64,000 bases of DNA from Christensenellaceae bacterium (GCA_045589175.1 JAZNFS010000033.1:90734-154733), one strand, 5' to 3'; counted from the first letter of the stretch, positions 40,542-57,851 are shown. Notes: generated by a model not told the origin, from the sequence alone. Numbers and translations: made by a program.

Positions 40542-41078
40542 ATGTATAATCAACTTGAAAGAATTTTATTTTCTAAACAGCAACTTGAAAAACGAGTAAA
40601 AGAACTTGGCTCAACTTTAAGCGCCGATTATAAGGATAAAAATCCCCTGCTTATTTGCATTTTAAAAGGAAGCACACTTTTTTACGCAGATTTAGTTAGA
40701 GCGATGGATATCCACCTTAATTTCGACTTTATGGCAGTTAGCAGTTACGGTGCAGAAACTCGTTCTTCTGGCGAAGTTAAAATGATAAAAGACCTTGACT
40801 ATTCTATCGCCGACCGTCACGTTATTATAGTTGAAGATATAGTAGATACCGGTTTTACTTTAAAGTATTTAAAGAAACTGTTATGCGCTAGAAAGCCAGC
40901 ATCACTAAAAATATGCACTCTTTTAAATAAACCAAGCCGTAGAGAAGTTGATTTGATGCCTGACTACGTGGGATTTGAAGTTGGCAATCACTTCGTTGTT
41001 GGCTACGGACTTGATTACGATGAAAAGTTTAGAAATCTACCCGAGATAGGCGTTTTAAAAGAGGAAGTTTATAAATAA
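40542..41078 (+). CDS. hpt: Hypoxanthine phosphoribosyltransferase
   Basis: PRPP-binding motif VIIVEDIVDTGFTL. Confidence 0.9.
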   Translation: MYNQLERILFSKQQLEKRVKELGSTLSADYKDKNPLLICILKGSTLFYADLVRAMDIHLNFDFMAVSSYGAETRSSGEVKMIKDLDYSIADRHVIIVEDIVDTGFTLKYLKKLLCARKPASLKICTLLNKPSRREVDLMPDYVGFEVGNHFVVGYGLDYDEKFRNLPEIGVLKEEVYK

Positions 41079-41079
41079 A

Positions 41080-42015
41080 ATGTTTGATAATATACTTGAG
41101 CAAATTAAAAATCACGATACAATAATCATTCACCGCCACACCAAGCCCGACGGCGACGCACTCGGCTCGCAGATAGGCTTAAAGCACCTTATTAAACACA
41201 ATTTTCCCAACAAAAAAGTGTTTGTCGTTGGCGATATGACCGAGCGTTATTCCTTTATTAACGACTGTGTAATGGATGAAATTGACGATAGCGTATATAG
41301 CGATGCTCTCGCCTTTGTTTTAGACCTTTCTGCTCCACATTTGGTATCCGACGAAAGATATAAATTAGCAAAAACAACCGTTCGTATCGACCATCACCTT
41401 TTTATTGAAAAGTTTTGCGATATAGAAGTTACGGACAGTAGTTTTGAAAGTTGCGCAGGGCTTATTGCGTACTTTGCCAAGAGCTGTAATCTTGGTTTAA
41501 ACGCGCAAAGCGCAAGCGCGCTATATACGGGAATGGTAACCGATTCTGGCCGTTTTAGATATGATTCAACCACTTCACGAACCTTTGAAGTTGCATCTTT
41601 TTTATTAACCGTTCCTTTTTCGTTAACCGATATATACGTAAACCTTTACGCCGACGATTTTGAGTTTATAAAACTTCGCGCAAGCTTTATTTTAAAAATT
41701 AATTTTACAGATAAAAAGGTTGCATATATCTATACTACTAAAGAAGAAATGGCTAAGCTTAACAAAGATACTTTTACTATTTCACGCGGAATGGTTAATA
41801 CTATGTCCGATTTAAAGGGCGTTGACGTTTGGGTTAACTTTACCGAAACTGAAGATGCTGTTCTTTGCGAAATTCGCTCGTCAAAGTATAACATTAACCC
41901 CATTGCTGTTAAGTACGGCGGTGGCGGACACGCAAAAGCAAGCGGAGCAACCCTACCCAACAAACAAACCGCTATGGCGCTACTTAACGACTTAAACGAC
42001 TTAATTGTAGAATAA
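41080..42015 (+). CDS. nrnA: DHH-family bifunctional oligoribonuclease / pAp phosphatase
   Basis: DHH motifs HRHTKPDGDALGS and IDHH, plus the DHHA1 segment GGGHAKASGA. Confidence 0.8.
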   Translation: MFDNILEQIKNHDTIIIHRHTKPDGDALGSQIGLKHLIKHNFPNKKVFVVGDMTERYSFINDCVMDEIDDSVYSDALAFVLDLSAPHLVSDERYKLAKTTVRIDHHLFIEKFCDIEVTDSSFESCAGLIAYFAKSCNLGLNAQSASALYTGMVTDSGRFRYDSTTSRTFEVASFLLTVPFSLTDIYVNLYADDFEFIKLRASFILKINFTDKKVAYIYTTKEEMAKLNKDTFTISRGMVNTMSDLKGVDVWVNFTETEDAVLCEIRSSKYNINPIAVKYGGGGHAKASGATLPNKQTAMALLNDLNDLIVE

Positions 42016-42593: not shown

Positions 42594-42615
42594 CTTTACG
42601 TGCTTTTAATTTTTT

Positions 42616-42667: not shown

Positions 42668-42706
42668 TGGAAAATTTTGCTTAGACTTACATTATTAGTA
42701 TAAAAT

Positions 42707-42757: not shown

Positions 42758-42845
42758 TTTTGCTTTTAAACGCGTTTTAAAATAGAAAAAGTTAAAAAAC
42801 AAAAACGGCTTTGTAATAATACCAAAGTCCAAAAAGGTATAAAAT

Positions 42846-43829
42846 ATGAACGAACAAATAATGCAAAGCATTTTGCAAAAAATTAAAGATTACCAAAGTA
42901 TAATGATATTCCGCCATATTCGTATGGATGGTGACTGTACTGGCGCAACAAAGGGCTTTAAGGATATTTTAACCGCATCTTTTCCCGAAAAAGACGTTTA
43001 TTTAATTGACCCAAGCCAAAGTAGCGAATTTTTAGCCTTTTTAGGTAGCGATGATGAAGACGTAAGCGACGAAATTTATGCAAAATCGCTTGCTATAGTT
43101 TTAGATACCGCTTCGCTTGACAGAATTTCTAATAAAAAATACGCCCTTTGCAAAGAGATTATAAAAATAGACCACCATATCAATATCACGCCCTACGGTG
43201 ATTTAAGTTGGGTTGAAGAAGAGCGCTCTTCTACTTGCGAAATGATAACTCATTTTTACAAAACCTTTAAAGATGAGCTTAAAATAACTAAAGAGGGAGC
43301 AAAATATCTTTTCACAGGTATGGTAACCGATTCTGGCCGTTTTAGATATCGTGAAGTTTCGGGCGAAACCATGCGACTTGCCGGCTTTTTATTAGATACG
43401 GGCATCGATACCGATACACTTTACGCACACCTTTATATGCAAACTAAAGAAAGTATGATTTATAAAGGCTATATTTTAAAAAATATGAAGGTAACCGAAA
43501 ACGGCGTTGCTTACTTTTACGTATCAAACAAAACTCAAGAAAAACTTGGTTTATCGCGCGAAGATGCAAGCGCCGGTGTTTCAGCTCTTGAAAATATTGA
43601 AAACTGCTTGATTTGGATTGCTTTTATTGAAAACGAAGATAAATCAATCCGTGTGCGCCTACGCTCACGCTTTATAACTGTTAACGATATAGCCGAAAAA
43701 TATCACGGTGGTGGGCATTCTTGCGCGAGTGGAGCAACCGTTTATAGCAAAAAAGAACTAAAAGCCTTAATTGACGACGCTGACGCTAAACTAAAAGAAT
43801 ATAAAGAAAATAACGAGGGCTGGCTATGA
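42846..43829 (+). CDS. Second DHH-family phosphoesterase (NrnA paralog)
   Basis: DHH motifs FRHIRMDGDCTG and IDHH, plus GGGHSCASGA. Shares TGMVTDSGRFRY with the upstream nrnA. Confidence 0.75.
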   Translation: MNEQIMQSILQKIKDYQSIMIFRHIRMDGDCTGATKGFKDILTASFPEKDVYLIDPSQSSEFLAFLGSDDEDVSDEIYAKSLAIVLDTASLDRISNKKYALCKEIIKIDHHINITPYGDLSWVEEERSSTCEMITHFYKTFKDELKITKEGAKYLFTGMVTDSGRFRYREVSGETMRLAGFLLDTGIDTDTLYAHLYMQTKESMIYKGYILKNMKVTENGVAYFYVSNKTQEKLGLSREDASAGVSALENIENCLIWIAFIENEDKSIRVRLRSRFITVNDIAEKYHGGGHSCASGATVYSKKELKALIDDADAKLKEYKENNEGWL

Positions 43830-44551
43830 GAATACTTATAACCAACGACGACGGTATAAACGCTCCCGCGCTTAAACCGCTTGCTAAGTGGGCTAAAAAA
43901 CACGGCGAAGTTACTGTGGTTGCTCCAAAGGTTGAACAAAGCGGAAAGAGTCACGGCATTGAAATTATAAAGGCAATGGAAATTAAAAAGGTTGAATTTA
44001 CTAGTGGCATTGAAGCTTATTCGGTTGATTCTACCCCTGCCGATTGCGTAAGATTTGGTATTATCGGGCTTAAGCGCGATTACGATTTGGTTATTTCGGG
44101 CATAAATCGCGGATATAATTTAGGCAAAGATATTGTTTATTCGGGTACTATTGGCGCAATTTTTGAGGCAAGCGGACTTGGTATTAAATCGGTGGCGCTT
44201 TCTACCGCACCCGATAGTTTAGATAATGCTCTTTCACTTTTAGATGAAGTTTATGAGTTTTTTGTTTACAATAAATTGCTTGATAAAAACCCAATTTATA
44301 ACGTAAACTTACCAAGTTTAAAATGTAAAGGAATTAAAATTACTAAAACCGGTGGCGGTTATTATTCTGATGATTTTAAAGAAGTTTCGCCTAATATGTT
44401 CGTCCAAGTTGGAAAAATGATTTGGGATGATAAAAACGATATGAATATTGATACCGATGCCACAATGCACGGTTACGTATCGATTACTCCCCTTTCTAGT
44501 GAACGCACTGAAATTAGAGTGTATAACGAGCTAAAAGTTTTAAACGATTAA
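43826..44551 (+). CDS. surE: 5'/3'-nucleotidase SurE
   Basis: MRILITNDDGINAPAL signature. Confidence 0.9.
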   Translation: MRILITNDDGINAPALKPLAKWAKKHGEVTVVAPKVEQSGKSHGIEIIKAMEIKKVEFTSGIEAYSVDSTPADCVRFGIIGLKRDYDLVISGINRGYNLGKDIVYSGTIGAIFEASGLGIKSVALSTAPDSLDNALSLLDEVYEFFVYNKLLDKNPIYNVNLPSLKCKGIKITKTGGGYYSDDFKEVSPNMFVQVGKMIWDDKNDMNIDTDATMHGYVSITPLSSERTEIRVYNELKVLND

Positions 44552-44720
44552 TCTCTTTTAATTAAATATTATAGCACGGTAGAATATCGTTATGGTCAAA
44601 TGATAAACTACCGTGCTTTTTTATTGTTTTGGTTGTTATATTTTTTTTGAGACCTTTCGACTGACGCTCAAGGTGACATTACAATGCTCAACATGACAAA
44701 AGAAAAAGCGCGGTGTATAA

Positions 44721-44772
44721 CGCTTTCTCCTTCCACCGCTAAAGCGGTCCCCCTTCCTCCCAGAGGACGGCT
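44721..44772 (+). repeat. GC-rich repeat, type B copy 3 (followed by TTTTTT)
   Basis: CGCTTTCTCCTTCCACCGCTAAAGCGGTCCCCCTTCCTCCCAGAGGACGGCT. Confidence 0.6.
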
Positions 44773-44797
44773 TTTTTGGGGGTGGCATTATAAAAGA

Positions 44798-44830
44798 AAA
44801 AAGCAAGTGCGGTTGGGCACTTGCTTTTTG
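44798..44830. terminator. Bidirectional intrinsic terminator
   Basis: AGCAAGTGCGGTTGGGCACTTGCT flanked by A- and T-runs. Confidence 0.6.
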
Positions 44831-44869: not shown

Positions 44870-47800
44870 TTAGTAGTAAATAACTTCGATTGCTGTTATT
44901 CTAGCTTGACCGTTCGTTGCACTACCTGTATTGCCTACGCCAAAGGTTGTTGTTGTTGCATTAACTGTTACAACTGTTCCGCTAGTAATATTGCTACCAT
45001 TATGTGTTAAACAGCCACTGTTGTTTACTACATATGTAATTTTTACTGATTTAATAGTTTTACCATTAGCTGCACTTATTGTAAGTTCTGCAGATTCAGA
45101 TTGATATAAACGCCAGTTTGTGCCAGATGTATAGTATTTACCACTATTGCCGCCACCGTTTACTGTAACACTAATATTATTATCCATTGTCATGGTTGTA
45201 TATTGTGTACCATTCTCCCAACCATTTGCACTAGCATAATTAGCAATTGAAACAGTTATTTCTGTTTCTTGTACGCCAGCTTGCTTTCCACATACACAAC
45301 TACCACTTGATAAGTCGTGTTCTTCAGTTTCTAACGGAGCATTACAAATTGAACATGGCTTCCAGTGGTTACTATCATCAGAACCCCAAGTACTTGAAGC
45401 AACGCATTCATGTTTATCAATATCTAGTAATGTACAACCATTAAATTCAATAGTTGCATAATAGTTTAATATTTTACCAGTAGCAGTAATTGTATCGCCA
45501 ACAGAAACTCTATCAATACCATCACCAGCTAATTTATAACATTTAACTACATAATCACTATGATTTAAAATTTTAATATCAACAGTAATACTAGTTGCAT
45601 TTGGTGTATATGCATAGCTAATATTATCAACTACACCAACTAAAGTAACTTGATTAGGATAAGTTGTTGTATTATTATTTTTATCAGCAATTGCAAATAT
45701 GTCAGCTAACAAATCGCCAGTTGCTATAGTTTCTTTGTGTGATTCATCATTTCCACAAACACGAACGTGAGTGTCGTTTTCTGCAGGAGTCCATGCGCCA
45801 TATTTGTGACCTAAAGCAGGAGCTAAAACTTTTTCACATACTTCACATTTTTGAGCTGTTTCACAAGTAGCAGCCGCACCAGGAGTATGAGCTACCTTTT
45901 CATCTGCAAGATCACTACATACTGTACAAGCGTGCCAATGGTTGTCACCGTCTGATGACCAATCTTCTGAAGCGGTGTGACCAGTTTCAGGAACCTCATC
46001 TTTGTGTTTAGTTGATTGGCAACCTTCAAAGTTACAATGGTAAACAGTATAACCAGCTTCTGTACAAGTAGGAGCAACAGTTTCGCCCTTTACTGAGAAA
46101 TCACAAGTGTGTGATAATGCACGACAAGTTGTACATTTGTTATCTGCGCCGTAAACGTGAGCTTCTTTTTCAGTTGCAGGGTTACCGCAAGTTTCACATG
46201 CGTGCCAGTGACCTTCGCCATCGCTTGACCATTCAGCTGAAGCAACGTGATCAGCTAAAGGAAGTTCTTCTGTGCTAACTGTTTCGCCACAGTCATCACA
46301 AACAACAGTTATTGAGCCAGCTTCTGTGCAAGTAGCATCTTCTTGAGTTGTAGTAGTTTCAGCATGTGCACAAGGAATAACTTCGCCATAGAACTTACAA
46401 TAGAAACCTTCGTATGAAACTTTGCAAGGACCTACTGTTGTATACTTTTGATCGTTTCTTGTACCAAACCAGTAATCTTCATCATTAACTACAGCGATAA
46501 GAGTTTGCTTTTCTGAATCATATCTGTAAACAGTTGAAGCAGTTGCTTCGTAAGCACCATTTACATGCGTTCCGCTAACTACACAGTTAATATATAATTT
46601 TGATTCACCATTTAAAGTGTATAAGTAGTAACCACCTTCTGTAGCTTCAAGATATACGTCAATAGCTGCTTCTACGTTTTCAGTAGTAGCTAAATAGTAA
46701 CTATTCATACCACCAGCTAGGTAGTACATCTTGTCATCAAGATTGCCTTGAGCCATACCAAACTTGTATGCAGTTCCTACTACTGGAGCTTTAATTAAAC
46801 CAAATTCAGGAGCTTTATGCTCAAAAGCAATAATTGTTGCATTTTTGAATTGAATTGCATCGTTATAAGTGCTTAATTCACCATATAAGTAAACAATATC
46901 ACCAGCAACTGGTTTGAATGTCATATCAGCATAACCAACACCGCGTGGATCGTAAGAACCGTAAACAGTTACTTTTAATTGACGGTTTTCATCGGTTACA
47001 TACATGTTACCATATTGTGCATTGTAAACTTCGGTAACAGTAACTTTTGCAAAGAATTTGCCCGCTGGAACTTCTGTGAATGCAGCGATATCAGCAAGAT
47101 CTGTAGGTGCTGTAAATGAAACGATATCAGCATTCTTCATTTGAGCTGTACCGTTGTATTGACCCATAGGACCAACAACTTTTACGTAATCACCAACAAC
47201 TGGTTTGCTTTCCATTTCACCGTATTTCTTGCCGTTACCATCGTATAAACCGTAAATGTAAAGTTTATCGCCGTTGCCATCCATAATGTACATATTGCCG
47301 TATTGTGCACTTGCAATTTCAACAACAACACCTTCTGCGATGTATTTATCAGCAGTGTAAACGTTATGTGCTTGTGCAGAACCAATAGCATTAAGTTCTT
47401 TAATAGCTGTAGTAAATTTGTTTAATTCAACTTTAAATGATTTAGTTGCAGTTTCACCGTTTAAAGTAGCAGTTGCAACTAAAGTAACAGTTGTTTTTCC
47501 CTCAGGAAGAGTGAATGTTGCAGTACCTTCAGCGTTATCAATAACAACTGCATCTGATTCAGATGCCCAAGTAAATGTAACTTCTGGGAATAAAGAACCA
47601 ACCATTGTTAAGTTAACAACTTTATCACTATTTAAACTTTCAACACATTCAAGAGCTTCTAATTCGAAAGCAACTCTGCCTGCATCGTCTAATTCAGCAG
47701 CGGTAATGTAACGGAAGATAGTTGTAGAGAAGCCATCAACTGTGATAGTAGCTGTTAAGCAAGCTCTTTCCATATTGCCAGGGTTGATAACTAAGTTGCC

Positions 47801-49321
47801 TTGGTCAATAGCAAAAGATCTTGGTGTACCGATGATGCGGTAAGAAACTTCGCAACCTTCAAGTTCAGCAGGAAGATTTACGTTTTTAGCAAGTGCAACA
47901 ACTGCTGCATCTAAACCGTTTTCAGCAATAATAGCATCGATAGCAGCAACAGCCTTAGCAGCTGTTTTACCAGCGTAAACGGTGCCTTCTGGGTCAGCAG
48001 TGCCACCTTTAACAACTGCGCTTGCGCTTAATGGAGCGATTTGGTGACCTTTGTAGTTACCTAAAATACCTGTTACAGATACTACGTCGCCAACTTGTAA
48101 AGAGCTTTGTAAGCCGATAAGAGCTGAACAAGTAGCATCGCTTGTTTTATATGCGTATGCGCCTTCGTAATATTTTGAAATAACAACAGGAACGTCAACA
48201 CCGCCCTTTGTAAGAACGAATAAAGTTTGAGTTCCGCTTGATAAATCAGGAGTATCTTTAATTTCTTTTACAGTCCAGTTAGTAAGTGATACTAATCTTG
48301 ATTGATTGTAGTATGCAGATTGTAAGTTACCGATAATGTCGTTATCAACAGCGTAAACCTTTTCGCTTACGTTGATAGGAGCAACGTCGGTATCAACAAC
48401 TAAATTACCACCGGCGTTAGTTTCCATAAGGCCGTTGTAATCGGTGTTAATTGTTTCGGTAACGGTGATGTGAACGCCTGGTTGTAATAATGCTGCGTTT
48501 GCATCGTCTGTTTTAACGCGGTATAAGTAGTAACCAGCAGTGAAATCATCGTTAACCATATAAAGAGTTACGTTTTTGTATTCATCACTATATACTGTAC
48601 CGATTGTTACAACGTAACCACTCATAACGATACCTACACCGGTGTTAGTGTACCAATAGTCAACTTCTTGTAAAGGTTCTTTTTGTTCAGAAACAGTCAT
48701 TCTGTAGCTCTTGGTAGTGCTTACGCCGTTGTATGTGAAAGTAGCGTTAATTTTTACTTGTGGGTTAAGTGATGATGGGTAAACGTAGCAAGTTTTACCG
48801 TCTTCACTGATTTCAAGATAGTTTGCATATTCTTCGTCAACCGACCAAGCGATAGTAGCAGTGTGACCTTTAAATTCGCAAGAAGTATCAAGCGCGAAGT
48901 CTTCAACTACGGTGCCGTTGTTGTTAACAAAGTTGTAAGAACCACTAAAATCGTAAACGCTTAATGGATTAACGTAAACGGTAAAGGTTTTAGAAATTCT
49001 TTTAGATTTGAATAAAACTGTAAGGTCAACTTCCGTTCTTTCGGTAGGTAAACCAACTTTTGCAACGTATTGTCTTTCAATTCCATTTTCTTTGTCTGCT
49101 TCTACTTCTGTTAACGTAATTAAATCGCTATTAGAAGACCAGGTAGCTTTAAATTCGCCAATTGTGCCTGGAAGAACAAAGTCTTCTGAAATCGTTTGAC
49201 CATCTTTTTCAAAGATGTACATATCCAATGTTGCTTGAGGGTCTGTTTTGCTACAAGCTACTAAGCCGAAGCAAGAAAGAGCAAGAACAAGCGATAGGAT
49301 GACAAGTAGGGTTTTCTTCAT
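44870..49321 (-). CDS. 1483-aa surface lipoprotein with multiple OB-fold (nucleic-acid-binding-like) modules and Cys-rich HWHxCxxC repeats
   Basis: Lipobox LVAC. Repeated segments of the type AQYGNMY..DG....YG.Y...VGD.V.V.G....YN...Q.KNA resemble OB modules. SDGxxHWHACxxC occurs three times. Confidence 0.55.
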   Translation of the reverse strand: MKKTLLVILSLVLALSCFGLVACSKTDPQATLDMYIFEKDGQTISEDFVLPGTIGEFKATWSSNSDLITLTEVEADKENGIERQYVAKVGLPTERTEVDLTVLFKSKRISKTFTVYVNPLSVYDFSGSYNFVNNNGTVVEDFALDTSCEFKGHTATIAWSVDEEYANYLEISEDGKTCYVYPSSLNPQVKINATFTYNGVSTTKSYRMTVSEQKEPLQEVDYWYTNTGVGIVMSGYVVTIGTVYSDEYKNVTLYMVNDDFTAGYYLYRVKTDDANAALLQPGVHITVTETINTDYNGLMETNAGGNLVVDTDVAPINVSEKVYAVDNDIIGNLQSAYYNQSRLVSLTNWTVKEIKDTPDLSSGTQTLFVLTKGGVDVPVVISKYYEGAYAYKTSDATCSALIGLQSSLQVGDVVSVTGILGNYKGHQIAPLSASAVVKGGTADPEGTVYAGKTAAKAVAAIDAIIAENGLDAAVVALAKNVNLPAELEGCEVSYRIIGTPRSFAIDQGNLVINPGNMERACLTATITVDGFSTTIFRYITAAELDDAGRVAFELEALECVESLNSDKVVNLTMVGSLFPEVTFTWASESDAVVIDNAEGTATFTLPEGKTTVTLVATATLNGETATKSFKVELNKFTTAIKELNAIGSAQAHNVYTADKYIAEGVVVEIASAQYGNMYIMDGNGDKLYIYGLYDGNGKKYGEMESKPVVGDYVKVVGPMGQYNGTAQMKNADIVSFTAPTDLADIAAFTEVPAGKFFAKVTVTEVYNAQYGNMYVTDENRQLKVTVYGSYDPRGVGYADMTFKPVAGDIVYLYGELSTYNDAIQFKNATIIAFEHKAPEFGLIKAPVVGTAYKFGMAQGNLDDKMYYLAGGMNSYYLATTENVEAAIDVYLEATEGGYYLYTLNGESKLYINCVVSGTHVNGAYEATASTVYRYDSEKQTLIAVVNDEDYWFGTRNDQKYTTVGPCKVSYEGFYCKFYGEVIPCAHAETTTTQEDATCTEAGSITVVCDDCGETVSTEELPLADHVASAEWSSDGEGHWHACETCGNPATEKEAHVYGADNKCTTCRALSHTCDFSVKGETVAPTCTEAGYTVYHCNFEGCQSTKHKDEVPETGHTASEDWSSDGDNHWHACTVCSDLADEKVAHTPGAAATCETAQKCEVCEKVLAPALGHKYGAWTPAENDTHVRVCGNDESHKETIATGDLLADIFAIADKNNNTTTYPNQVTLVGVVDNISYAYTPNATSITVDIKILNHSDYVVKCYKLAGDGIDRVSVGDTITATGKILNYYATIEFNGCTLLDIDKHECVASSTWGSDDSNHWKPCSICNAPLETEEHDLSSGSCVCGKQAGVQETEITVSIANYASANGWENGTQYTTMTMDNNISVTVNGGGNSGKYYTSGTNWRLYQSESAELTISAANGKTIKSVKITYVVNNSGCLTHNGSNITSGTVVTVNATTTTFGVGNTGSATNGQARITAIEVIYY

Positions 49322-49360
49322 CTTTTTTTTCTCCTTAAATTTGTTTAAAATAAATTTTAA

Positions 49361-50644
49361 TTATTTGATTTGAATATCGGCAAAATTTAAAATTGTTAAT
49401 TCGCCTGAATTTTCTTCATACTGATAGCCTTTCACACTAAACTGCTTGCCTACAGTAAATTCGTTTGTATAATTTGCGGGAACTTCAACGCTAAAGGTGA
49501 AGCTTTCAACTTCTTCCTTTACGCCGTCTTTCATGCGTTTTTGAGCCGTTGCTACAATGGTAAGAGTTGTTCCTTCAATCGACGAACTTACTACCGTTGC
49601 GTCAGTATAAAGGGTATCACTATATTGAGTAAGGTAATTTGTTGATGAATTAAATGTTAAAAGGTAATTTTTTTGAATTGGTGACGTGTGGTCCATTAGG
49701 TTAGCACCGTAAATCACGTCATATAAAATACCTGAAATTTGATAATTACCGTAATGCATTTGGATTGTACCAACTACACGGTATAAATGCCCTATCTTCA
49801 TTTTAGATGCTGCACTTGAAGAATATCCCGCATATACGTCAATCGCATATCTCGTGCCGTTTTCGTCATAATACTCTGCAACAAAAGTGCGAGTTCCGCT
49901 GTTTGAAATTCTTAAATCACAAATACAAGCGGTGAAGCGAACTTTTGAACCAGCTTCGGTTTCAACGTTGTAATATGCTTCCTCGTTATCAAAAAATTGC
50001 TTTAGAGTAATATCTTCGGGGTCGGTAGAGAATAGTGGGTCGTCAAGATCAGAATAAATACGAAGTTTAATTTTTCTTGCAAACGATTCTGCCTTTGCAA
50101 AATAACTGTTATATGGATACTTGTCTGTAGCCATACCGCCGTTTGAGCTAAAACCATTTTCAACCAATTCTAAATTTAGGCACTTAAAGTCGCTATCTTG
50201 TGCGGTTTTATACCATACGTAACCCAAATATCTTGTGCCATAACTATCCTTTTCGGCACGGGGAGCAGTTGCTTCCAATACGATTTCGGTTGCACTTGAT
50301 AAACGGGTTTTGGTAAATAATGATGCCGCTTTGCCCCATTTTTGCACGTTTCCGGTTGATTCGGGCGTGTCAATTTGGTAATATCTAACGGCTATAATAT
50401 TGCCTTGTTCTAATCTAAAACGGGTGGTATCACCGTCGGTATGGGCATCGACTGTTGCTCTGCCTATACCGTCGGTTAAAAATGATTTCCCCTCAAAACT
50501 TTTGTTTAATTTTAAACCAGAGGTGATTTCGTTATAATATTCGGTATTGTCAGCAACTTTTTCTTTTCCGCCATCGCAGGCAAAGAAAACTAAGCTACTT
50601 AACGTTATTAATATTAAAACGATAATCGATAAAATCTTTTTCAT
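49361..50644 (-). CDS. Thermonuclease (SNase) family lipoprotein with C-terminal OB-like domains
   Basis: Lipobox FFAC. The SNase core reads DGDTTRF...IDTPE...GKAAS.F......VLE......D.YGR.LGYV. Confidence 0.7.
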   Translation of the reverse strand: MKKILSIIVLILITLSSLVFFACDGGKEKVADNTEYYNEITSGLKLNKSFEGKSFLTDGIGRATVDAHTDGDTTRFRLEQGNIIAVRYYQIDTPESTGNVQKWGKAASLFTKTRLSSATEIVLEATAPRAEKDSYGTRYLGYVWYKTAQDSDFKCLNLELVENGFSSNGGMATDKYPYNSYFAKAESFARKIKLRIYSDLDDPLFSTDPEDITLKQFFDNEEAYYNVETEAGSKVRFTACICDLRISNSGTRTFVAEYYDENGTRYAIDVYAGYSSSAASKMKIGHLYRVVGTIQMHYGNYQISGILYDVIYGANLMDHTSPIQKNYLLTFNSSTNYLTQYSDTLYTDATVVSSSIEGTTLTIVATAQKRMKDGVKEEVESFTFSVEVPANYTNEFTVGKQFSVKGYQYEENSGELTILNFADIQIK

Positions 50645-50682
50645 TTTCTTAAATTTCTTTTCTTTATTATTTTTATTTGTTC

Positions 50683-52038
50683 TTATTTACCGCCACAGTT
50701 TGTGTATGCGTCAGCTAATGCTTGAGCTGCGGTCTTTTCGCCTCTTAATGCGAATACTAATGCTGTTCCAACTTGTTCACGTGCAGTTGAAGAACCAACG
50801 AATGCAGGTGAAGTGTAGAATCTTGAGCTTAATTCTCTTGCAACGTTTGCAGCTTGTGCAGTAAGTGATTCGGTATCAGCCATGTGAGCTACATAATCTG
50901 GGATATCAAATGTTGATAAACGGCAAGGATTGTAACCAGATGAGATTGAGAATGATGCTTGGAATGTAGGATCTAAAAGTTCCTTCATAAATAACCAAGT
51001 CATAAGTTGTTTTTCTTCGCTGTTAGATACGCCGTGACCATCCTTAAGCATAACTAGTGATGGACCTTGTGAAATAACTGAGTAATCAACTGAACCATCT
51101 TCTAAAGTTGAACCAGGAATTGGAGCAATACCCCATTCAAACTTATCGCCTGGGTCTTGGTGAGATGCACCACCAGATGAACCGATACAGTAAACTAAAC
51201 CGCCATCTTCAACACCCTTTGTGAATAGTGCGCTTGTATATGCGCCGTAGTCTTCTTGAGTTGTGATGTAACCTTCTTTATAGTATCCATTAAGTTGTTC
51301 TAACCAAGCAGTTGTTTCTGGGTTGTTAAATAAGAAGTGGTTTCCTTCTGCACTAGTGTAACCCCAACCGTTTTGTTCACACATTGTGATAAACCAGTTT
51401 GCTTCAGAGTCGTATCCTAAAGGAGTTGCAGTAGGATAAGCTTTTACGATAGTTTCGCATTGTGCCCAAAGTTGATCCCAAGTTGTTGCTACTGGAAGAT
51501 TTAAAGCATCAAGTGCAGTTTTGTTGTAATATAATAATTCGGTTGACTTAACAAATGGTAGAGTTAACATAGATTCTGCAGTGTAACCATTAGCTGCATA
51601 ACCAGCATAGTTAGTTGCATAACCTTCGTTATAGTAACCTGGAACGAAGTCTTGAACTTCTGTTGCAGTATAACCGTGTTCTGCACTTGAAATAAACTGG
51701 CTAAGATCAACTACCTTGCCGGTTTGAATGTATTGTGCAACGTGGTCTGGATAGCAGTATGCTAAGTCTGGTTGGTTTTGACCTTGGAAATCTGAAACGA
51801 TTTTTGACTTTACTTCGTCGTAGCCACCTGGTTGAGAGTGTTCTACCTTCCAACCTGGATATTTAGCTGTAAATGAAGCAATAGCGTTTGCAGTAACCTT
51901 TTGAAGTGCGTCACCTTGTGTTGAGTAGAAGAAGATGGTGTGTTCATAATCAACTGGTTCTTCAGTTTTACCACAAGCAGCCATTGTGCTAAAAAGCATA
52001 ACTACGAACATTAATGTTGCTAAAAGTTTGTTTTTCAT
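50683..52038 (-). CDS. ABC transporter substrate-binding lipoprotein (family 1 / CUT1 type)
   Basis: Lipobox MAAC. 451-aa solute-binding fold. Confidence 0.75.
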   Translation of the reverse strand: MKNKLLATLMFVVMLFSTMAACGKTEEPVDYEHTIFFYSTQGDALQKVTANAIASFTAKYPGWKVEHSQPGGYDEVKSKIVSDFQGQNQPDLAYCYPDHVAQYIQTGKVVDLSQFISSAEHGYTATEVQDFVPGYYNEGYATNYAGYAANGYTAESMLTLPFVKSTELLYYNKTALDALNLPVATTWDQLWAQCETIVKAYPTATPLGYDSEANWFITMCEQNGWGYTSAEGNHFLFNNPETTAWLEQLNGYYKEGYITTQEDYGAYTSALFTKGVEDGGLVYCIGSSGGASHQDPGDKFEWGIAPIPGSTLEDGSVDYSVISQGPSLVMLKDGHGVSNSEEKQLMTWLFMKELLDPTFQASFSISSGYNPCRLSTFDIPDYVAHMADTESLTAQAANVARELSSRFYTSPAFVGSSTAREQVGTALVFALRGEKTAAQALADAYTNCGGK

Positions 52039-52148
52039 GTGTTACTTCCTTCCTAAAAAAAATTTTTATTTTTGTTAACGCACTTTCGTGCGATTTAACC
52101 TTTAATTGTTTTGTGCGCCTTTACACGCGCGTTATTCTATAATAAGGC

Positions 52149-53114
52149 TTAACCCTTTGTTCCACTCTTTGATACGCCGTGCATAATGTATTTACGGCAG
52201 AAGATGAATAGTACAAACAATGGAAGTGATACTATACATACCGCCGCCATTTTTAAAGTGTTAAGAGGTTCGCTTCCGTAGTCACCACCGTAAATCAAAC
52301 CATCTTTATCGGTAAATCCGCCGGTAACCCAGTTGGTTATCATTTGCCACTTATCCATATTTACAAGACGAGGCCAAATGTATGAGTTCCACGTTCCTAT
52401 AAACTTTAAAAGAGTTATTGATATTAAGGTTGGTGCTGTTAACGGAACCATTACCTTAATTAAATAGCCCATATCGGAAAGCCCGTCAACCTTTGCTGCC
52501 TGGTATAGCGAATTTGGTATTTGCATAAAGTTGTTTCTCATAAGGTAAATATAATATACGCTTACTAAAAAAGGAACTATTAAAACGGTGTAAGTATCCT
52601 GCCAATGAAGTTTTGATATAGTTAAGTAGTTAGTAATGGTGTACATTTCGCCCGGTATCATCATCGTGCCAAGCATTATTGAGAATAGTAAGTTTTTGCC
52701 CTTAAAATCCATTCTTGCTAATGCGTATGCCGTGATTATTATTATCACCAAGCCTATTATAGTGGAGGTGAAACCTACTACCAATGTGTTAACTAAAATT
52801 TGTGCAAAGCTCGTTCCACTTGAAGAGCCTTCGGTTTGGTTTAAAACCATTGAATAGTTTTCCCACATTGCCTTTTCTGGAAAGAACGATGAGGTTGGAT
52901 CGCGGTATTCAGGCTCGCTCTTTATAGATGATATAAACATCCAAAAGAAGGGTAAAAATGCAAGAATAGCGCAGATTGAAAGAAAGAAATAAACAAAAAT
53001 ATTTTTAATTATTTTTTGTATTCTTTGCTTTTTATATTCCTTCTCGATATCGAAAATGGGGTTTTCTTGTGGTAGAGATGAATTTTCAGAAATGTTTTTA
53101 ATATTATCTTCCAT
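52149..53114 (-). CDS. Carbohydrate-type ABC transporter permease (MalG/UgpE-like)
   Basis: Six TM segments and an EAA-like loop. Confidence 0.8.
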   Translation of the reverse strand: MEDNIKNISENSSLPQENPIFDIEKEYKKQRIQKIIKNIFVYFFLSICAILAFLPFFWMFISSIKSEPEYRDPTSSFFPEKAMWENYSMVLNQTEGSSSGTSFAQILVNTLVVGFTSTIIGLVIIIITAYALARMDFKGKNLLFSIMLGTMMIPGEMYTITNYLTISKLHWQDTYTVLIVPFLVSVYYIYLMRNNFMQIPNSLYQAAKVDGLSDMGYLIKVMVPLTAPTLISITLLKFIGTWNSYIWPRLVNMDKWQMITNWVTGGFTDKDGLIYGGDYGSEPLNTLKMAAVCIVSLPLFVLFIFCRKYIMHGVSKSGTKG

Positions 53115-53125
53115 ATTGCACCTCC

Positions 53126-54256
53126 TTAGTAGGTTACGCGCTTTTTACTAACGCGTAAGTTGATAGCAGTTATAATCATTATTATTATAAACAATAATAA
53201 AGAACCTGCGTATGCGTAACCCGTTTGACCGAGTTCTAAGTATTGGTAAATGTAACCTACCATCGTTCCCATATCGTAGTTAGTACCCATATCTGCGCCG
53301 AATACACCTACTACTGCCGAATATTGTTTCATACCGCCCATAATACCCGTAATCAATAAATAAGATATCATTGGAGAAATTAAAGGAGTGGTTATTTTCC
53401 ATAATACGGTGCTCTTTGACGCCCCGTCAATTTTTGCAGCATCGTAATATTGCTTGTTAACGCTTTGTAACGCGCTGAATAAAATTAAAATTTTAAAAGG
53501 TAAGCCAGACCAAACTTCATATACAATCATTATAGAATATTTAGTCCACGGAATATCAACCTTGCCTAAATGCCAAACTAAACTTTCGTTTGTGCTTAAG
53601 TTCGTTCCCCTTATCCAGTTGATTGGGTCAGCCCCAAACCAGCCAAGTAAATCGTTTACTATACCAAGTTGTGCTGTTCCAGCAGCGATTTGACGTGTCG
53701 TTCCTATTACTTGGAAGAAGGTTAAGAAAACCGCACCCATCGCTAACGAGTTGGTTAGGTATGGTAAAAACAATACCGTTTGAAAGGCTTTTTGTAAAGG
53801 TTTAATTGAGTTTAAGGCTACCGAAATGAATAATGCAATAAATGTTGAAAGTGGAACTGATACGAAGGTTAGTACCATCGTGTTGGTTAAGCATTGCAAA
53901 AAGTTTGCTCCGCCCGTTCCCGTGTCACCCTTTAAAACACGAATAAAATTTTCAACCCCCCAGCCGTTATAGGTGCTGGCTAAACCATTGTATTCTTGCT
54001 TAAAAGAGTTTACGAACGCACTTACGATGGGATAGAAAGTGAATATAACCATTAAAAGCAAAGCGGGTAAAACAAATAACCAGCCTTGTTGAGCACGGAA
54101 AAAACGACTTAACTTTTCTTTGGTTGAAAGTTGTGGAATTGCCTCGCTCGCTTTTTTAGCTACGGGAGAATCCGTATTTTCAGCATCGCTTTCTATAACA
54201 ACGTTTTGTTCGGTAATATTTTCATTTTCGGGCAAATTTCTTTTGTCCATAGTCAT
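53126..54256 (-). CDS. Carbohydrate-type ABC transporter permease (MalF/UgpA-like)
   Basis: Polytopic permease with an N-terminal extension. Confidence 0.8.
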   Translation of the reverse strand: MTMDKRNLPENENITEQNVVIESDAENTDSPVAKKASEAIPQLSTKEKLSRFFRAQQGWLFVLPALLLMVIFTFYPIVSAFVNSFKQEYNGLASTYNGWGVENFIRVLKGDTGTGGANFLQCLTNTMVLTFVSVPLSTFIALFISVALNSIKPLQKAFQTVLFLPYLTNSLAMGAVFLTFFQVIGTTRQIAAGTAQLGIVNDLLGWFGADPINWIRGTNLSTNESLVWHLGKVDIPWTKYSIMIVYEVWSGLPFKILILFSALQSVNKQYYDAAKIDGASKSTVLWKITTPLISPMISYLLITGIMGGMKQYSAVVGVFGADMGTNYDMGTMVGYIYQYLELGQTGYAYAGSLLLFIIIMIITAINLRVSKKRVTY

Positions 54257-54257
54257 A

Positions 54258-55334
54258 TTAATAAATCCTCTCTTCAGTTTCTGCGTTAAATAAGAAAACT
54301 TTGTTTGGTTTCAAGTTGAACTTAAGTTGTTTTGCCTCTTCTGGAAGCGCTATGTCAGAATCGATTATGCTTCTTACTGTATCTTTAGTTGAGTTAGGGT
54401 GGGTTGAAACAACCGTTTTATCTCTTCCCATAACCTCAATATGATCGGTATTTAAAGTGAACCTGCCGTTCTCATCGTAAATAAAGCCTTCTGGTCTAAT
54501 ACCTACGAATACCGCTTGGTCTTCAAGTTCGGGCTTTTCTAAAACCACTTCACCGCCAATGATTAGCTTGCCGTTAACGATTTCGCCCTTAAATATATTG
54601 ATTGGTGGCGTTCCTAAGAAGTTTGCTACGAACATATTTGATGGATTGTCGTATATCTTTTGAGGCGCACCGACTTGTTGAACAACGCCAAGTTTCATAA
54701 CTACCATTATATCACAAATGGACATCGCTTCTTCTTGGTCGTGCGTTACGAATACGGTTGTAATTCCCGTTTCACGTTGGATACGTTTAATTTCTTCACG
54801 AGTTTGTAAACGTAATCTTGCGTCAAGGTTTGAAAGTGGTTCGTCAAGCAATAAAACGTTTGGCATTTTTACAAGTGCACGTGCTATTGCTACACGTTGT
54901 TGTTGACCACCCGAAAGTTGCGATGGCTTACGCGCCATAAGATCTTCTATTTGAACTAATTTTGCCGCGTCTAAAGCCCTTGCTTTTGCTTCTTCTTTAG
55001 GCATTCTCATATTTACTAAAGGAAACATTATGTTTTGTTCCACCGTCATATGTGGGTATAACGCGTAGTTTTGGAAAACTAAACCTATTCCACGTCTTTC
55101 AGGGGCTAAGGTTGTTACGTCTTGGTCTTCAAATAAAATGTGGCCCGACGTTGGGTTTTCTAATCCTGATAACATAAACAATGTGGTTGATTTACCACAA
55201 CCTGATGGACCTAAAAGACCAACAAGTTTGCCTGATGGAATTTCAAGACACATATCGTTAACTGCAACTACTTCGTCGCCTTTTTTGTTTCTACTTGGGA
55301 AAATTTTCGTTAGATTGTTGATTGTAATTTTCAT
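54258..55334 (-). CDS. ABC transporter ATP-binding protein (MalK/UgpC type, with a C-terminal TOBE-like domain)
   Basis: Walker A GPSGCGKST, signature LSGGQQQR and Walker B LLLDEP. Confidence 0.85.
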   Translation of the reverse strand: MKITINNLTKIFPSRNKKGDEVVAVNDMCLEIPSGKLVGLLGPSGCGKSTTLFMLSGLENPTSGHILFEDQDVTTLAPERRGIGLVFQNYALYPHMTVEQNIMFPLVNMRMPKEEAKARALDAAKLVQIEDLMARKPSQLSGGQQQRVAIARALVKMPNVLLLDEPLSNLDARLRLQTREEIKRIQRETGITTVFVTHDQEEAMSICDIMVVMKLGVVQQVGAPQKIYDNPSNMFVANFLGTPPINIFKGEIVNGKLIIGGEVVLEKPELEDQAVFVGIRPEGFIYDENGRFTLNTDHIEVMGRDKTVVSTHPNSTKDTVRSIIDSDIALPEEAKQLKFNLKPNKVFLFNAETEERIY

Positions 55335-55345
55335 TCGCGTTCTTC

Positions 55346-56626
55346 CTATCGCCTTATAATTTTTGCCTCAACGGCTTTTCTATAACCTTCAGCAACGATG
55401 GTTGCTGGTATAGATTTCGTTTCAAAAGTTGTTTCCAGTTCGGATGACTGCAAACTGTAAACCCCTGCTTTCATCCTTTGCTTATCCCTATAACCGTTTA
55501 CGTAATTAAAGGTAAAGGTTACGCTTTCAGTTTCGTTTGCGTAGGTTAGCTTAATCTCTTCCGATTCGCTTAAACCTTCGGCTTGTAACGTTATTTCTAC
55601 CTGACTGTAATAATCTGTTCCAAAAGTTGATTCGTCAAGTTTTGGTTCTTTAGGCTTGATTTTTAATACCTTTGTGCCAAACCATTTTATAAACTTTAAA
55701 ATATATCTCGTGCCTAAAAGAAAATCGCCAAGCACGTAAACACATACGAAATATATTATTATGGTTTTAGTCGCGCGCTTATCTGCGCTTGATCTTGCTA
55801 TACTCGTGTTGCTTTTGGCATAGTTTTCGTTTGATAGAAGTTGAGCATCTAACGCGGTTAATTCAGCGCCTAACGCTTGGTTATTTTGGTTAAAATCTTC
55901 ATCTCCTGCGTGAAGAGCCGCATAATCGGCTACTTCGTTATTTTTTTCAATAAAAGCTTCAACGTCATTAAAAAATTGGGTTTTAAACAAATTTTCACTA
56001 CTAAAAGTTGGATTCGTGGTTTCAATAGTGCCATATTCGCCACCATTCGCCATTATAAAGGTTAGAGACAAAATATTCGTAACACCTAATGACTGCATAT
56101 CACTATCCGAAAACTCTAAAAAGAAAAAGTTGTTGGTTAAAAGCGATGATATATTGTCGAAAACTTGGTCGTTATTAGTATCACAATTTAAAAGCTCAAA
56201 CTCTTTCGCTCCATCTGTTGTGTTGATTAAAAGTTTGGTTTTATTTTCAGCAGTGGAAGAAACTGCAAATTTATCATCCAACCCAAAAACAAAACCTGCG
56301 TAAGACTTGTGCATTTTATATTTTTTTACAACATTTTCTGCACTCGTATCGTCGCCGTATTTATGCTCGTATAGGGTTGCGGATTCAAAAATTACAACAC
56401 TTCCGCCCCTTTCGAAGCTTTTGTATAATACGTATTGCTCGTTGTAGTACCCGCCAACCAGACCCATTGCTTGGCTATAATTCCCAACCTCAAGCGACTG
56501 TTGTATGGTGTTTAATGCTTCCCCATCATACATATAAACGAAGGGTAAAAAAATAGCCAGCATAATACCTAACGAAAAAGCGAATAAATAGTAAACTATT
56601 TTTGCAAACAAACTTCCCTTTTTCAT
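55346..56626 (-). CDS. Hypothetical two-TM membrane protein with a large extracytoplasmic domain
   Basis: N-terminal and internal TM helices. No recognisable motif. Confidence 0.4.
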   Translation of the reverse strand: MKKGSLFAKIVYYLFAFSLGIMLAIFLPFVYMYDGEALNTIQQSLEVGNYSQAMGLVGGYYNEQYVLYKSFERGGSVVIFESATLYEHKYGDDTSAENVVKKYKMHKSYAGFVFGLDDKFAVSSTAENKTKLLINTTDGAKEFELLNCDTNNDQVFDNISSLLTNNFFFLEFSDSDMQSLGVTNILSLTFIMANGGEYGTIETTNPTFSSENLFKTQFFNDVEAFIEKNNEVADYAALHAGDEDFNQNNQALGAELTALDAQLLSNENYAKSNTSIARSSADKRATKTIIIYFVCVYVLGDFLLGTRYILKFIKWFGTKVLKIKPKEPKLDESTFGTDYYSQVEITLQAEGLSESEEIKLTYANETESVTFTFNYVNGYRDKQRMKAGVYSLQSSELETTFETKSIPATIVAEGYRKAVEAKIIRR

Positions 56627-56629
56627 AGT

Positions 56630-56896
56630 TTATTTATCGCTAATGTCCTCATCGTTTGGAGTCGATAAATCAATCGTGTCGTCACTTACGGATTCAGCAT
56701 CTCTGGCTTTTTTGGCAGCGTTAAACGCGCTTTCTCTTTCTCTTAAATTATTGCGTTGCGTTTCGTATTGCTCTCTTCTAAAAATTGGTATTAAAAAATA
56801 CACAGCAATTATTACGGCAATGATGATACCACAAATTAAAAAGAAATTGCGGTCGACCTTGCCTAATCTATTTAATAACAACAAAGTATTTAACAT
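56630..56896 (-). CDS. Small single-TM protein
   Basis: 88 aa, first gene of the minus-strand operon. Confidence 0.35.
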   Translation of the reverse strand: MLNTLLLLNRLGKVDRNFFLICGIIIAVIIAVYFLIPIFRREQYETQRNNLRERESAFNAAKKARDAESVSDDTIDLSTPNDEDISDK

Positions 56897-57805
56897 AACT
56901 TTATACTCCTTTACGATAATCGCTACTATATCATTAAAGTTTCGCTTTAGTTTAATATTTATTTTTTTTAGCCCTATTTTTGTTTAATCTTTGTTTTTAA
57001 ATGCGGGTTCAACACCGTTTCTCTTGTTTTTATTGTGTTTTTCGCGCACGCGCGCACCTATGCGAGTCAAAATTATAACATATTCAAACACATATCTGTC
57101 TAAAAAGATTATTTTTCCTCAAGGTTTTAAAAGCAACTGTGTTCATATGCTTTGAGAAAGCCAATTACACAATTTTTTTACAAAAATCAACGCTTTTTGT
57201 ACGGACTTAAAAATCTTAACCTTAGCATGCGCAATTCTGAAGTTTATACAAGCAACAAAACATTTTTTTTTGCGCTTTTGATCGTTGAAACGATAATGTG
57301 CCAAGTTTATCTTATTCTCAGTTTTACCTTTGGTAACAACTCTTTTTTTAAAGAATAAAAAATTTTTGTGTGTTTTTTTTAAAAAACCAAATCTTGCGTT
57401 TTTATTATATCACAAAAATCGACAAAACGCCACTATTTTACTACCCTTTATTAATAATTAATAAAATTATTTTCTTACTTGATTTTTTATGCCAAAAATT
57501 ATAAATAAAATTGCCGAATTTTTGTGGTTTTTTACTAACTTTTCTAAAAAATAAGGTGTTTTTTCAATTTCCAAACAAAACTAAAGTTGTAAGCGACAAA
57601 CTTTTAATTGTATCTTCAAATAAACCCACGACTTCGCTTAAAAAACGTAACAAAAATAGCGAGCTTTAACGAGATAAAATTTTTTAAAAAACACGGGGAA
57701 TTTTAATATAAAAGTGACGTTTATCAACTTATAGGCTTACTTTTTTGTAATTTATAATCCTTAAAAAACGCTTAAAAATAATCCGATATTTTTTTAAGAA
57801 AGTTA

Positions 57806-57845
57806 AAAAACCAAAAAGTTGTAGCACACAAAAGTATACTACAAC
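57806..57845 (-). terminator. Intrinsic terminator after the M20 peptidase gene
   Basis: AGTTGTAG...CTACAACT hairpin plus a T-run. Confidence 0.5.
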
Positions 57846-57851
57846 TTTTAA

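Follow-up and report, generated by a model that had tools for sequence, protein, structure and literature searches.

A string of eight genes found in a Christensenellaceae bacterium probably encodes a system that degrades nucleic acids at the cell surface, imports the resulting mono- or oligonucleotides through an ATP-binding cassette (ABC) transporter and trims them further in the cytoplasm. The string occupies positions 44870-56896 of a stretch of 64,000 nucleotides (GCA_045589175.1 JAZNFS010000033.1:90734-154733), which is called the window here. From the first gene to the last, it encodes an 88-amino acid (aa) membrane protein, a 426-aa protein with two transmembrane (TM) segments, an ABC ATPase, two permeases, a solute-binding lipoprotein, a lipoprotein of the staphylococcal nuclease (SNase) family and a 1483-aa lipoprotein with five predicted oligonucleotide/oligosaccharide-binding (OB) folds. 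An initial annotation, made from the sequence alone, had proposed that this locus captures and degrades external DNA and takes up the products. The proposal is supported overall by the conserved gene order, by linkage to genes for NrnA-like and SurE enzymes and by the resemblance of the binding protein to a dinucleotide-binding protein (PDB 7C0F), except that DNA and RNA are equally likely substrates. As for the imported products, which had been given as sugar-phosphates or oligonucleotides, our analysis favors nucleotides and short oligonucleotides, not sugars. The concept of such scavenging is not new, because mycoplasmas provide a published precedent; the window operon is an enlarged version of that arrangement.

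A conserved string of eight genes

The eight open reading frames (ORFs) of the region were searched against Pfam and NCBIfam profiles. Their recomputed boundaries agree exactly with those of the initial annotation, all eight lie on the minus strand, and the profile searches together with hydropathy bear out the earlier list of membrane, transporter and solute-binding proteins. Three of the products (the binding protein, the nuclease and the 1483-aa protein) begin with a signal segment followed by a Cys residue, as judged by hydropathy, and are lipoproteins on this basis.

Gut and rumen metagenomes are the source of the homologs of the 1483-aa protein (521 matches) and of the nuclease (598 matches). 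When each species was represented by a single genome, the nuclease was detected in 105 genomes, and at 80 loci the window proteins were mapped onto the local ORFs for comparison. The full run of eight genes is present in the same order at 60 of the 80 loci. At 16 others, the run is cut by the end of the contig but is consistent as far as it goes, and four have split or duplicated gene calls. With 60 of 80 species-level genomes sharing this order, chance cannot plausibly account for the arrangement. Across these loci, identity of the nuclease is 36-77%, and the flanking genes differ. Carriers are labeled Clostridia, Christensenellaceae, Oscillospiraceae, Bacilli, Acholeplasmatales and Anaeroplasmataceae, and include the cultured Anaeroplasma bactoclasticum ATCC 27112. 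Three loci from bins named "cleanbin" (L036, L037 and L063) are titled Parasutterella, Ruminococcus bicirculans or Phascolarctobacterium despite their Bacillota-type operon, and the NCBI taxonomy puts Candidatus Fimimonas in Myxococcaceae; these look like mislabeled bins or taxa.

Intergenic gaps within the string are 1-39 bp, except for 110 bp between the genes for permease 2 and the binding protein. Strong intrinsic terminators flank the string at 57849-57814, after pepV, and at 44829-44798, where the terminator is shared with the convergent surE gene. No convincing same-strand terminator was found within the operon; the 110-bp gap has two small hairpins and no clear terminator. Thus, signs of separate transcripts, which the initial annotation had named as a point that would count against it, were not found. 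From the tight gaps, the terminators at the ends and the conserved order, we infer that the eight genes are co-transcribed, with a promoter presumably located in the leader of approximately 950 bp that precedes the first gene.

This leader (56897-57851) is unusually long; the corresponding upstream gaps are approximately 0.4-0.5 kb in loci L001 and L002 and approximately 1 kb in L004. It had no Rfam match at gathering or E-value thresholds, and conservation detected with nhmmer was confined to one near-identical strain (L006, a metagenome-assembled genome (MAG) from sheep rectum). The idea that the leader contains a regulatory RNA was therefore dropped.

The nuclease lipoprotein

The 427-aa nuclease lipoprotein consists of a lipobox (Cys23), an SNase catalytic domain (residues ~61-203), a middle domain (204-330) and a C-terminal domain (331-427). 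Residues 86-198 match PF00565 with 49.1 bits (cut-off, 21), as do all 37 family members that were searched (37/37), and the protein matches S. aureus nuclease with a phmmer E-value of 1.6e-8. The initial annotation had made its proposal depend on the active-site residues, and these are present: equivalents of SNase D21, R35, D40, T41, E43 and R87 align with S. aureus nuclease in the segments DGD, vRy, DTPE and ygtRy. Among 37 relatives that are 51-77% identical, D72, R87, T93, E95, R138 and the lipobox Cys are invariant, and D92, the equivalent of D40, is conserved in at least 90%. With its catalytic and Ca2+ residues invariant or nearly so across the family, the active site appears intact.

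Approximately 225 residues lie beyond the catalytic domain. They had been described as extra OB-like domains. The middle domain weakly resembles the OB modules of the 1483-aa protein (BLAST E-value 0.01; hhalign, 67%), has sub-threshold matches to PF01336 in 4 of 37 family members and is probably OB-like.

The 1483-aa OB-fold lipoprotein

The module layout of the 1483-aa lipoprotein (Table 1) was established by self-comparison, profile comparison and mapping of homologs. Five modules (OBa to OBe) represent the "several OB-fold-like modules" predicted earlier, and are separate from four Ig-like domains of the aBig_2 type. The five are interrelated, with hhalign values of 83-100% in nine of ten pairs and 64.8% for the pair OBa-OBb. 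For example, OBc and OBd form an internal repeat (46% identical; hhalign, 100% to each other and 92-96% to OBa and OBb), and OBa matches OBe at 99.8% (E-value 4.7e-29). OBd marginally exceeds the PF01336 cut-off (28.1 bits vs 27).

In an AlphaFold model of the cropped OBa-OBb pair (predicted local distance difference test (pLDDT) score 92.7; predicted template modeling (pTM) score 0.90), strands 1-3, a helix and strands 4-5 occur twice, as in the OB fold, a beta-barrel of five strands in which a helix separates strands 3 and 4. Foldseek matched this model only with OB-fold nucleic-acid binders (best E-value 2.6e-6): the HIN-200 domains of AIM2, IFI16 and p204, Teb1, the Thermus and Deinococcus SSB proteins, RPA, POT1 and CST. 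OBa and OBb are thus predicted to be OB folds of the nucleic-acid-binding class, and OBc, OBd and OBe are predicted to be OB modules through profile comparison and the one Pfam hit. The possibility, raised with the initial annotation, that the repeated modules are unrelated beta-sandwich adhesin domains is not what the model shows, because its only matches are OB-fold nucleic-acid binders; the other three modules are tied to this pair by profiles, and Ig-like spacers are present in addition. A larger AlphaFold2 model, of residues 24-760, is confident over residues 24-637 (pLDDT ~90) and has pLDDT below 50 over residues 641-760. Foldseek results for this 737-residue model are dominated by generic multi-Ig proteins and are uninformative on the OB question.

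Residues 1-640 are kept in all homologs and form a core, and the C-terminal part is a variable mosaic. Because the order of modules varies among homologs, a full-length alignment of the C-terminal half is misaligned. The most conserved stretch of the protein is OBa-OBb, whose 48 invariant residues are rich in Tyr, Trp and Asn. In the C-terminal part, the X domain occurs in one to three copies in homologs, and the domain at the C terminus is common to many homologs. A lookup of the exact sequence of the 1483-aa protein found no record. Its Cys-rich repeats carry a motif of the form GHT..W..D...HWH.C and resemble repeats of an IgA protease (PDB 9qa6; E-value 0.0033); they may represent a metal-binding extracellular module.

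Modules of the OBc/OBd type are found in 1854 representative proteins. In a sample of 58 such proteins from elsewhere, 27 match PF01336 (best E-value 1.3e-19). Enzymatic partners in this sample are limited to two 5'-nucleotidase/metallophosphoesterase domains and one Endonuclease I domain, and the remaining proteins carry cohesin, dockerin or leucine-rich repeat (LRR) domains or no recognizable domain. The partner enzymes would lend some indirect support to a role that involves nucleic acids.

The C-terminal half of this protein also varies between close strains. L006 encodes a nuclease that is 100% identical to that of the window, and the operon DNA from the leader to approximately codon 548 of the large gene is 96.7% identical; the housekeeping flanks are 83-90% identical. 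The large gene from approximately 47677 to 45817, in comparison with 12968-14120 of L006, is essentially unalignable apart from one 128-bp match at 80%, and the L006 protein is 1247 aa long and lacks OBc and OBd. Because the middle of the gene has been replaced and these modules are absent in L006, the C-terminal module set behaves like a cassette that can be swapped. Compared with its surroundings, the operon seems better conserved or more recently exchanged. Together, these patterns point to exchange of cassettes and perhaps to a recent transfer of the operon.

The ABC transporter and its binding protein

The transporter has the components expected of the CUT1 family (TC 3.A.1.1): a binding protein that matches SBP_bac_1 and SBP_bac_8, two BPD_transp_1 permeases and a MalK-type ATPase with a regulatory domain. 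The C-terminal OB_MalK match of the ATPase is borderline (26.6 bits; cut-off, 27). In NCBIfam, the ATPase and the permeases are best matched by names from the E. coli UgpBAEC system, an sn-glycerol-3-phosphate transporter of the same ABC architecture, and the binding protein has UgpB as its second-best match. However, all four scores fall far below the cut-offs: 355.9 bits vs 432 for UgpC (E-value 2.2e-106), 63.6 vs 335 for UgpA (2.6e-17), 117.6 vs 297 for UgpE (8e-34) and 33.3 vs 411 for UgpB. Therefore, the transporter is not Ugp itself.

The best PDB sequence match of the binding protein is the 7C0F group (E-value 1e-16); UgpB proteins follow at 8e-8 to 2e-4. A weak match to the NCBIfam model of the Mycoplasma P68 lipoprotein was also found (1.5e-7). 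As given in the main text and Supplementary Information Table S5 of a recent study, 7C0F is a Thermus thermophilus protein that binds uridylyl-3'-5'-phosphoguanosine (UpG, also U3G), and it is placed there beside UgpB in the CUT1 family (PMC12718374). The work on this dinucleotide-binding protein is attributed in the same source to Chandravanshi et al., FEBS J 2021 (PMC12718374). Thus, the closest solved sequence relative of the window binding protein is a UgpB-related, CUT1-type solute-binding protein; unlike the window protein, it is not a lipoprotein. We know of no association of the Thermus protein with a nuclease.

SNase products are mono- and dinucleotides with a 3'-phosphate. Because the nuclease would leave 3'-phosphate ends, the imported molecules are, as far as sequence can indicate, most likely mono- to oligonucleotides rather than sugars.

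Linked cytoplasmic enzymes

Convergent with the operon in the window are genes for hypoxanthine phosphoribosyltransferase (HPRT), an NrnA-like phosphoesterase, a DUF559 protein, a second NrnA-like phosphoesterase and SurE. NrnA is the best NCBIfam match of both NrnA-like genes, with 240 and 265 bits for genes 1 and 2 (cut-off, 350). Immediately beside the operon are the two NrnA-like genes and surE, both in the window and in 18 of the 40 loci that have enough downstream sequence; in most of these loci they are convergent with it, and in L001 and L009 they are co-directional. That adjacency is kept while orientation changes argues that the linkage is functional rather than accidental. HPRT is less constant: it lies within 10 kb of the operon in 7 of 80 loci, and both HPRT and TilS come and go in the neighborhood.

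NrnA cleaves 2-5-mers and removes the 3'-phosphate from pAp, and SurE hydrolyzes both 3'- and 5'-nucleotides. Provided that SNase products enter the cell still phosphorylated, the NrnA-like and SurE enzymes would complete their breakdown.

GC-rich intergenic repeats with small hairpins are also present in this neighborhood. A 59-nt unit occurs three times (42050-42108, 42614-42672 and 44719-44777) and a 54-nt unit twice (42544-42597 and 42707-42760); the repeats border the DUF559 gene (42162-42539) and the terminator of the operon, and several copies are present in L006. In the window and in L006, the DUF559 gene separates the two NrnA-like genes; it is not at that position in L001-L005 and is beside surE in L053, L055 and L067. 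Because its position varies, it may be a small mobile insertion.

Proposed pathway

We propose the following pathway, which we consider probable. At the cell surface, the membrane-anchored nuclease would cleave extracellular DNA or RNA, and the 1483-aa lipoprotein, with its five OB folds on Ig-like spacers, would keep the polymer or its fragments close to the membrane. The solute-binding lipoprotein would then capture small phosphodiester products, most likely mono- to oligonucleotides, for import by the CUT1-type transporter. Inside the cell, the NrnA-like pair would cut short oligonucleotides, SurE would remove phosphates, and HPRT and other salvage enzymes would recycle the bases.

A more specific form of this pathway is dedicated import of intact, short 3'-phosphorylated oligonucleotides (di- to perhaps pentanucleotides). 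Here, an acidic, metal-bridged OB array would hand products to the dinucleotide-type binding protein, the ABC transporter would carry them across the membrane with the help of the two novel membrane subunits, and the NrnA-like pair and SurE would finish the breakdown. We advance this form tentatively, as a possibility that may well not hold.

Several observations weigh against the proposed pathway. Every module of the 1483-aa protein is acidic, with isoelectric points (pI) of 4-5.6 for the OB modules and 4.5 for the mature protein; OBa has a pI of 4.05, with 4 Lys and Arg vs 14 Asp and Glu residues, and family medians for OB modules are pI 4.1-5.1. Because such charge is unusual for proteins that bind polyanions, direct binding of DNA is not secure; from fold and family, nucleic-acid binding by the OB array is plausible. 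The invariant Tyr, Trp and Asn residues of OBa-OBb suit base stacking and would also fit sugars, which are the usual cargo of CUT1 systems. Pfam and NCBIfam searches found no catalytic domain in the 1483-aa protein, and neither the X domain nor the C-terminal domain has a Pfam match, with five homologous copies of each tried. The 7C0F match spans mainly residues 159-391 of the binding protein, with a weak N-terminal segment, and reflects overall sequence likeness only. Finally, the NrnA-like and surE genes adjoin the operon in less than 50% of the loci with sufficient downstream sequence, and their products are housekeeping enzymes in many bacteria.

Alternative explanations

One alternative retains nucleic-acid scavenging but has the importer take unphosphorylated nucleosides, or deoxyribose or ribose, after the action of an unlinked surface phosphatase, with the NrnA-like and SurE enzymes as mere housekeeping neighbors. 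This explanation draws on the classical role of CUT1 systems as carriers of uncharged sugars, on the limited adjacency just noted (18 of 40 loci) and on the variability of HPRT and TilS as neighbors. However, Pfam and NCBIfam reveal no extracellular phosphatase or nucleotidase in the operon, the established enzymology of SNase leaves 3'-phosphates on the products, and the nearest relatives of the binding protein, the UpG-binding protein and then UgpB, bind phosphodiesters or phosphates and are not sugar binders. We regard it as unlikely.

A second alternative separates the components: the OB/Ig lipoprotein would be an adhesin or variable antigen for glycans of host, prey or matrix, the nuclease would clear extracellular DNA, neutrophil extracellular traps (NETs) or biofilm, and the ABC transporter would import sugars, with only the transcript in common. 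The acidic OB modules would suit this role, as would the four Ig-like domains, the multi-Ig adhesin and S-layer proteins that dominate matches of the 24-760 model, the cohesin, dockerin and LRR domains that accompany the OB module elsewhere, and the swappable C-terminal half, which differs even between strains with 100% identical nucleases. Moreover, Mycoplasma nuclease homologs act in NET evasion and cytotoxicity (PMC9740415). Yet eight genes in invariant order over approximately 80 species speak strongly for a shared function, it is the OBa-OBb core and not the variable tail that is conserved, all matches of the OB fold are nucleic-acid binders, and the carriers are mostly MAGs of gut commensals, not pathogens. 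This explanation appears quite unlikely.

We consider it improbable that the operon takes up glycerophosphodiesters or glycerol-phosphate in the manner of Ugp, with the nuclease as a general phosphodiesterase that supplies phosphate. The NCBIfam names of the four transporter components and the UgpB structures among the PDB matches point in this direction, whereas the scores far under the equivalog cut-offs, a match to the UpG-binding protein that is approximately nine orders of magnitude better than that to UgpB, and the lack of a glycerophosphodiesterase (UgpQ or GlpQ) gene in the operon argue against it.

Surface defense against phages or plasmids, or a competence-like machine that imports long DNA, would account for a surface nuclease, OB folds and novel membrane proteins but is highly improbable, given that PADLOC returned generic domain matches only for the operon proteins (SNc+LTD for the nuclease and models of ABC ATPases), that type I ABC importers with binding proteins are established carriers of small solutes, and that Pfam and NCBIfam searches found no ComEA, ComEC, ComF or pilin genes in the operon.

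Comparison with known systems

An arrangement in Mollicutes comes closest to the proposed scavenging pathway. In Mycoplasma agalactiae, the P80 binding protein, the SNase MAG_5040 and a sugar-type ABC transporter are co-transcribed in the order binding protein (MAG_5030), nuclease, ATPase, permease and permease (MAG_5050/60/70), and import of nucleotide precursors has been proposed (PMC3585158, PMC9740415). The same association was described for mhp379 of M. hyopneumoniae, Mpn133 of M. pneumoniae and MHO_0730 of M. hominis (PMC3585158, PMC9740415). By these published descriptions, the Mollicutes operons share with the window a surface SNase lipoprotein, a lipoprotein of the solute-binding type, a MalK-like ATPase and two CUT1 permeases, and both are proposed to feed products of nucleic-acid breakdown into the cell. 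Lineages within Mollicutes, namely Anaeroplasma and Acholeplasmatales, also carry the window-type operon. The two arrangements differ in several respects. Gene order in the window is ATPase, permease, permease, binding protein and nuclease; the 88-, 426- and 1483-aa proteins are additional, as are the C-terminal residues of the nuclease; the window operon is linked to two NrnA-like genes and surE; and most carriers of the window type are gut MAGs labeled Clostridia or Christensenellaceae.

Loci for degradation of DNA have also been described in Izemoplasmatales, Xianfuyuplasma coldseepsis and Hujiaoplasma nucleasis, and the accounts of the X. coldseepsis and H. nucleasis isolates, which are wall-less, report demonstrated growth on DNA (PMC8289736, PMC8397711, PMC10470597). 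As outlined in these sources, the loci resemble the window in placing extracellular nucleases beside phosphohydrolases, NrnA and ABC transporters, in relatives that lie on the path from Bacillota to Mollicutes. In contrast, their components are EddB, DNase/RNase endonucleases and phosphate ABC transporters, with no multi-OB lipoprotein or CUT1 transporter in the locus descriptions concerned, and their hosts are given as inhabitants of marine sediment, whereas window-type hosts live in the gut.

In YhcR of Bacillus subtilis and the ExeM/NucH nucleases, which are sortase-anchored or secreted, PF01336-type OB folds accompany domains that hydrolyze nucleic acids or nucleotides on the cell surface. 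The window proteins bring together the same kinds of domain at the surface but place most OB folds on a polypeptide separate from the catalytic domain, use a lipid anchor and include an ABC importer in the unit. Because its OB array lacks a catalytic domain, the 1483-aa protein is not a YhcR-type fusion. The E. coli UgpBAEC system differs from the window in its scores, as above, and in its UgpQ, which has no counterpart in the window operon.

Orphan membrane proteins

The first two genes of the operon encode membrane proteins without recognizable relatives. The 88-aa protein has no significant match in Pfam or NCBIfam. The 426-aa protein, in which a domain of approximately 255 aa lies between the TM segments and one of approximately 120 aa at the C terminus, has 25 invariant residues in an alignment of 14 sequences; it matched nothing in Pfam, NCBIfam or a phmmer search of PDB, nor did a profile of the 14 sequences match PDB or Pfam. 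Orthologs of both hold the same position in all 60 complete loci, and the two are inferred to be accessory subunits.

Features of the window

Table 1. Predicted features of the operon, its encoded modules and adjacent genes. Positions refer to the window; residues refer to the encoded protein.
Feature	Position	Strand	Residues	Basis or detail
88-aa single-TM protein, first operon gene	56630..56896	-	TM 18-36	
426-aa two-TM orphan membrane protein	55346..56626	-	TM 14-32, 288-306	
MalK/UgpC-type ABC ATPase with C-terminal regulatory domain	54258..55334	-		ABC_tran E 2.5e-38
ABC permease 1, UgpA/MalF-like	53126..54256	-		BPD_transp_1 E 3.6e-15
ABC permease 2, UgpE/MalG-like	52149..53114	-		BPD_transp_1 E 5.1e-11
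Solute-binding lipoprotein, CUT1 type	50683..52038	-		SBP_bac_8 E 6.7e-31; also SBP_bac_1
SNase-family lipoprotein, 427 aa	49361..50644	-		PF00565, 49.1 bits
SNase catalytic domain in nuclease lipoprotein	50036..50464	-		Pfam and S. aureus nuclease alignment
1483-aa multi-OB lipoprotein	44870..49321	-		Pfam aBig_2 and PF01336
Lipobox Cys of 1483-aa protein			23	
Two Ig-like domains			24-215	aBig_2-related
OBa			216-325	
OBb			326-440	
OBa-OBb tandem OB folds	48002..48676	-	216-440	
Helix and Ig-like domain			441-545	
aBig_2 domain			546-640	
OBc			641-742	
OBd			743-842	
OBc-OBd tandem OB modules	46796..47401	-	641-842	PF01336 type
X domain	46358..46795	-	843-988	Aromatic-rich
Two Cys-rich HWH-C repeats	45782..46357	-	989-1180	Self-BLAST E 1e-11
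OBe	45422..45781	-	1181-1300	OBa paralog
Third Cys-rich repeat	45278-45421	-	1301-1348	
C-terminal domain	44873..45277	-	1349-1483	
Bidirectional intrinsic terminator, operon end and convergent SurE gene	44798..44829	both		13-bp stem, U-runs on both strands
AT-rich noncoding leader, ~950 bp	56897..57851	-		pepV terminator to first gene
SurE 5'/3'-nucleotidase, convergent neighbor	43826..44551	+		TIGR00087, 167.7 bits (cut-off, 135.1)
NrnA-like DHH/DHHA1 phosphoesterase 2	42846..43829	+		Pfam DHH and DHHA1; NCBIfam NrnA E 6e-79
NrnA-like DHH/DHHA1 phosphoesterase 1	41080..42015	+		Pfam DHH and DHHA1; NCBIfam NrnA E 3e-71
HPRT, purine salvage	40542..41078	+		TIGR01203, 220.9 bits (cut-off, 150)

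The window also contains gyrA/B, metG and gltX and is therefore chromosomal; its GC content is approximately 36%. Other genes in the window include one for a 794-aa protein with a TIR_2 domain (residues 184-252) and a C-terminal DUF6273 domain (26196-28580, minus strand), which may be a defense or signaling protein and has no PADLOC match. A paralogous pair at 23534-24640 (minus strand) and 34650-35732 (plus strand) have an SPFH/Band-7 domain and C-terminal zinc ribbons each. Near the locus, another large protein, of 942 aa and with DUF5050 (36164-38992, plus strand), is probably surface-exposed and has no OB, X or C-terminal module in common with the 1483-aa protein.

Biologic significance

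The host is a reduced-looking, host-associated member of Bacillota, and reliance on nucleotide salvage is common among host-associated bacteria whose genomes are reduced. At least 80 species-level genomes from gut and rumen carry this type of locus, which repeats the logic of the Mycoplasma operons with more parts and with very strong conservation. Two orphan families of membrane proteins and two orphan extracellular domains are tied by it to one pathway, and the C-terminal modules of its large surface protein are swapped between close strains.

To our knowledge, the molecule transported by the Mycoplasma nuclease-ABC operons has never been identified. The window locus adds three clues to the substrate, namely a relative of a dinucleotide-binding protein, linkage to putative nano-oligonucleases and linkage to a nucleotidase that also acts on 3'-nucleotides. 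Because the cultured Anaeroplasma bactoclasticum ATCC 27112 carries the operon, the question of cargo can be tested directly. Although it does not represent a new principle, the locus is a version of the known one that is unusually complete and conserved in many species, and it could settle what nuclease-ABC systems import. If short oligonucleotides are indeed taken up intact, this would be the first defined bacterial system for oligonucleotide uptake, and would tell the cargo of the Mycoplasma operons as well.

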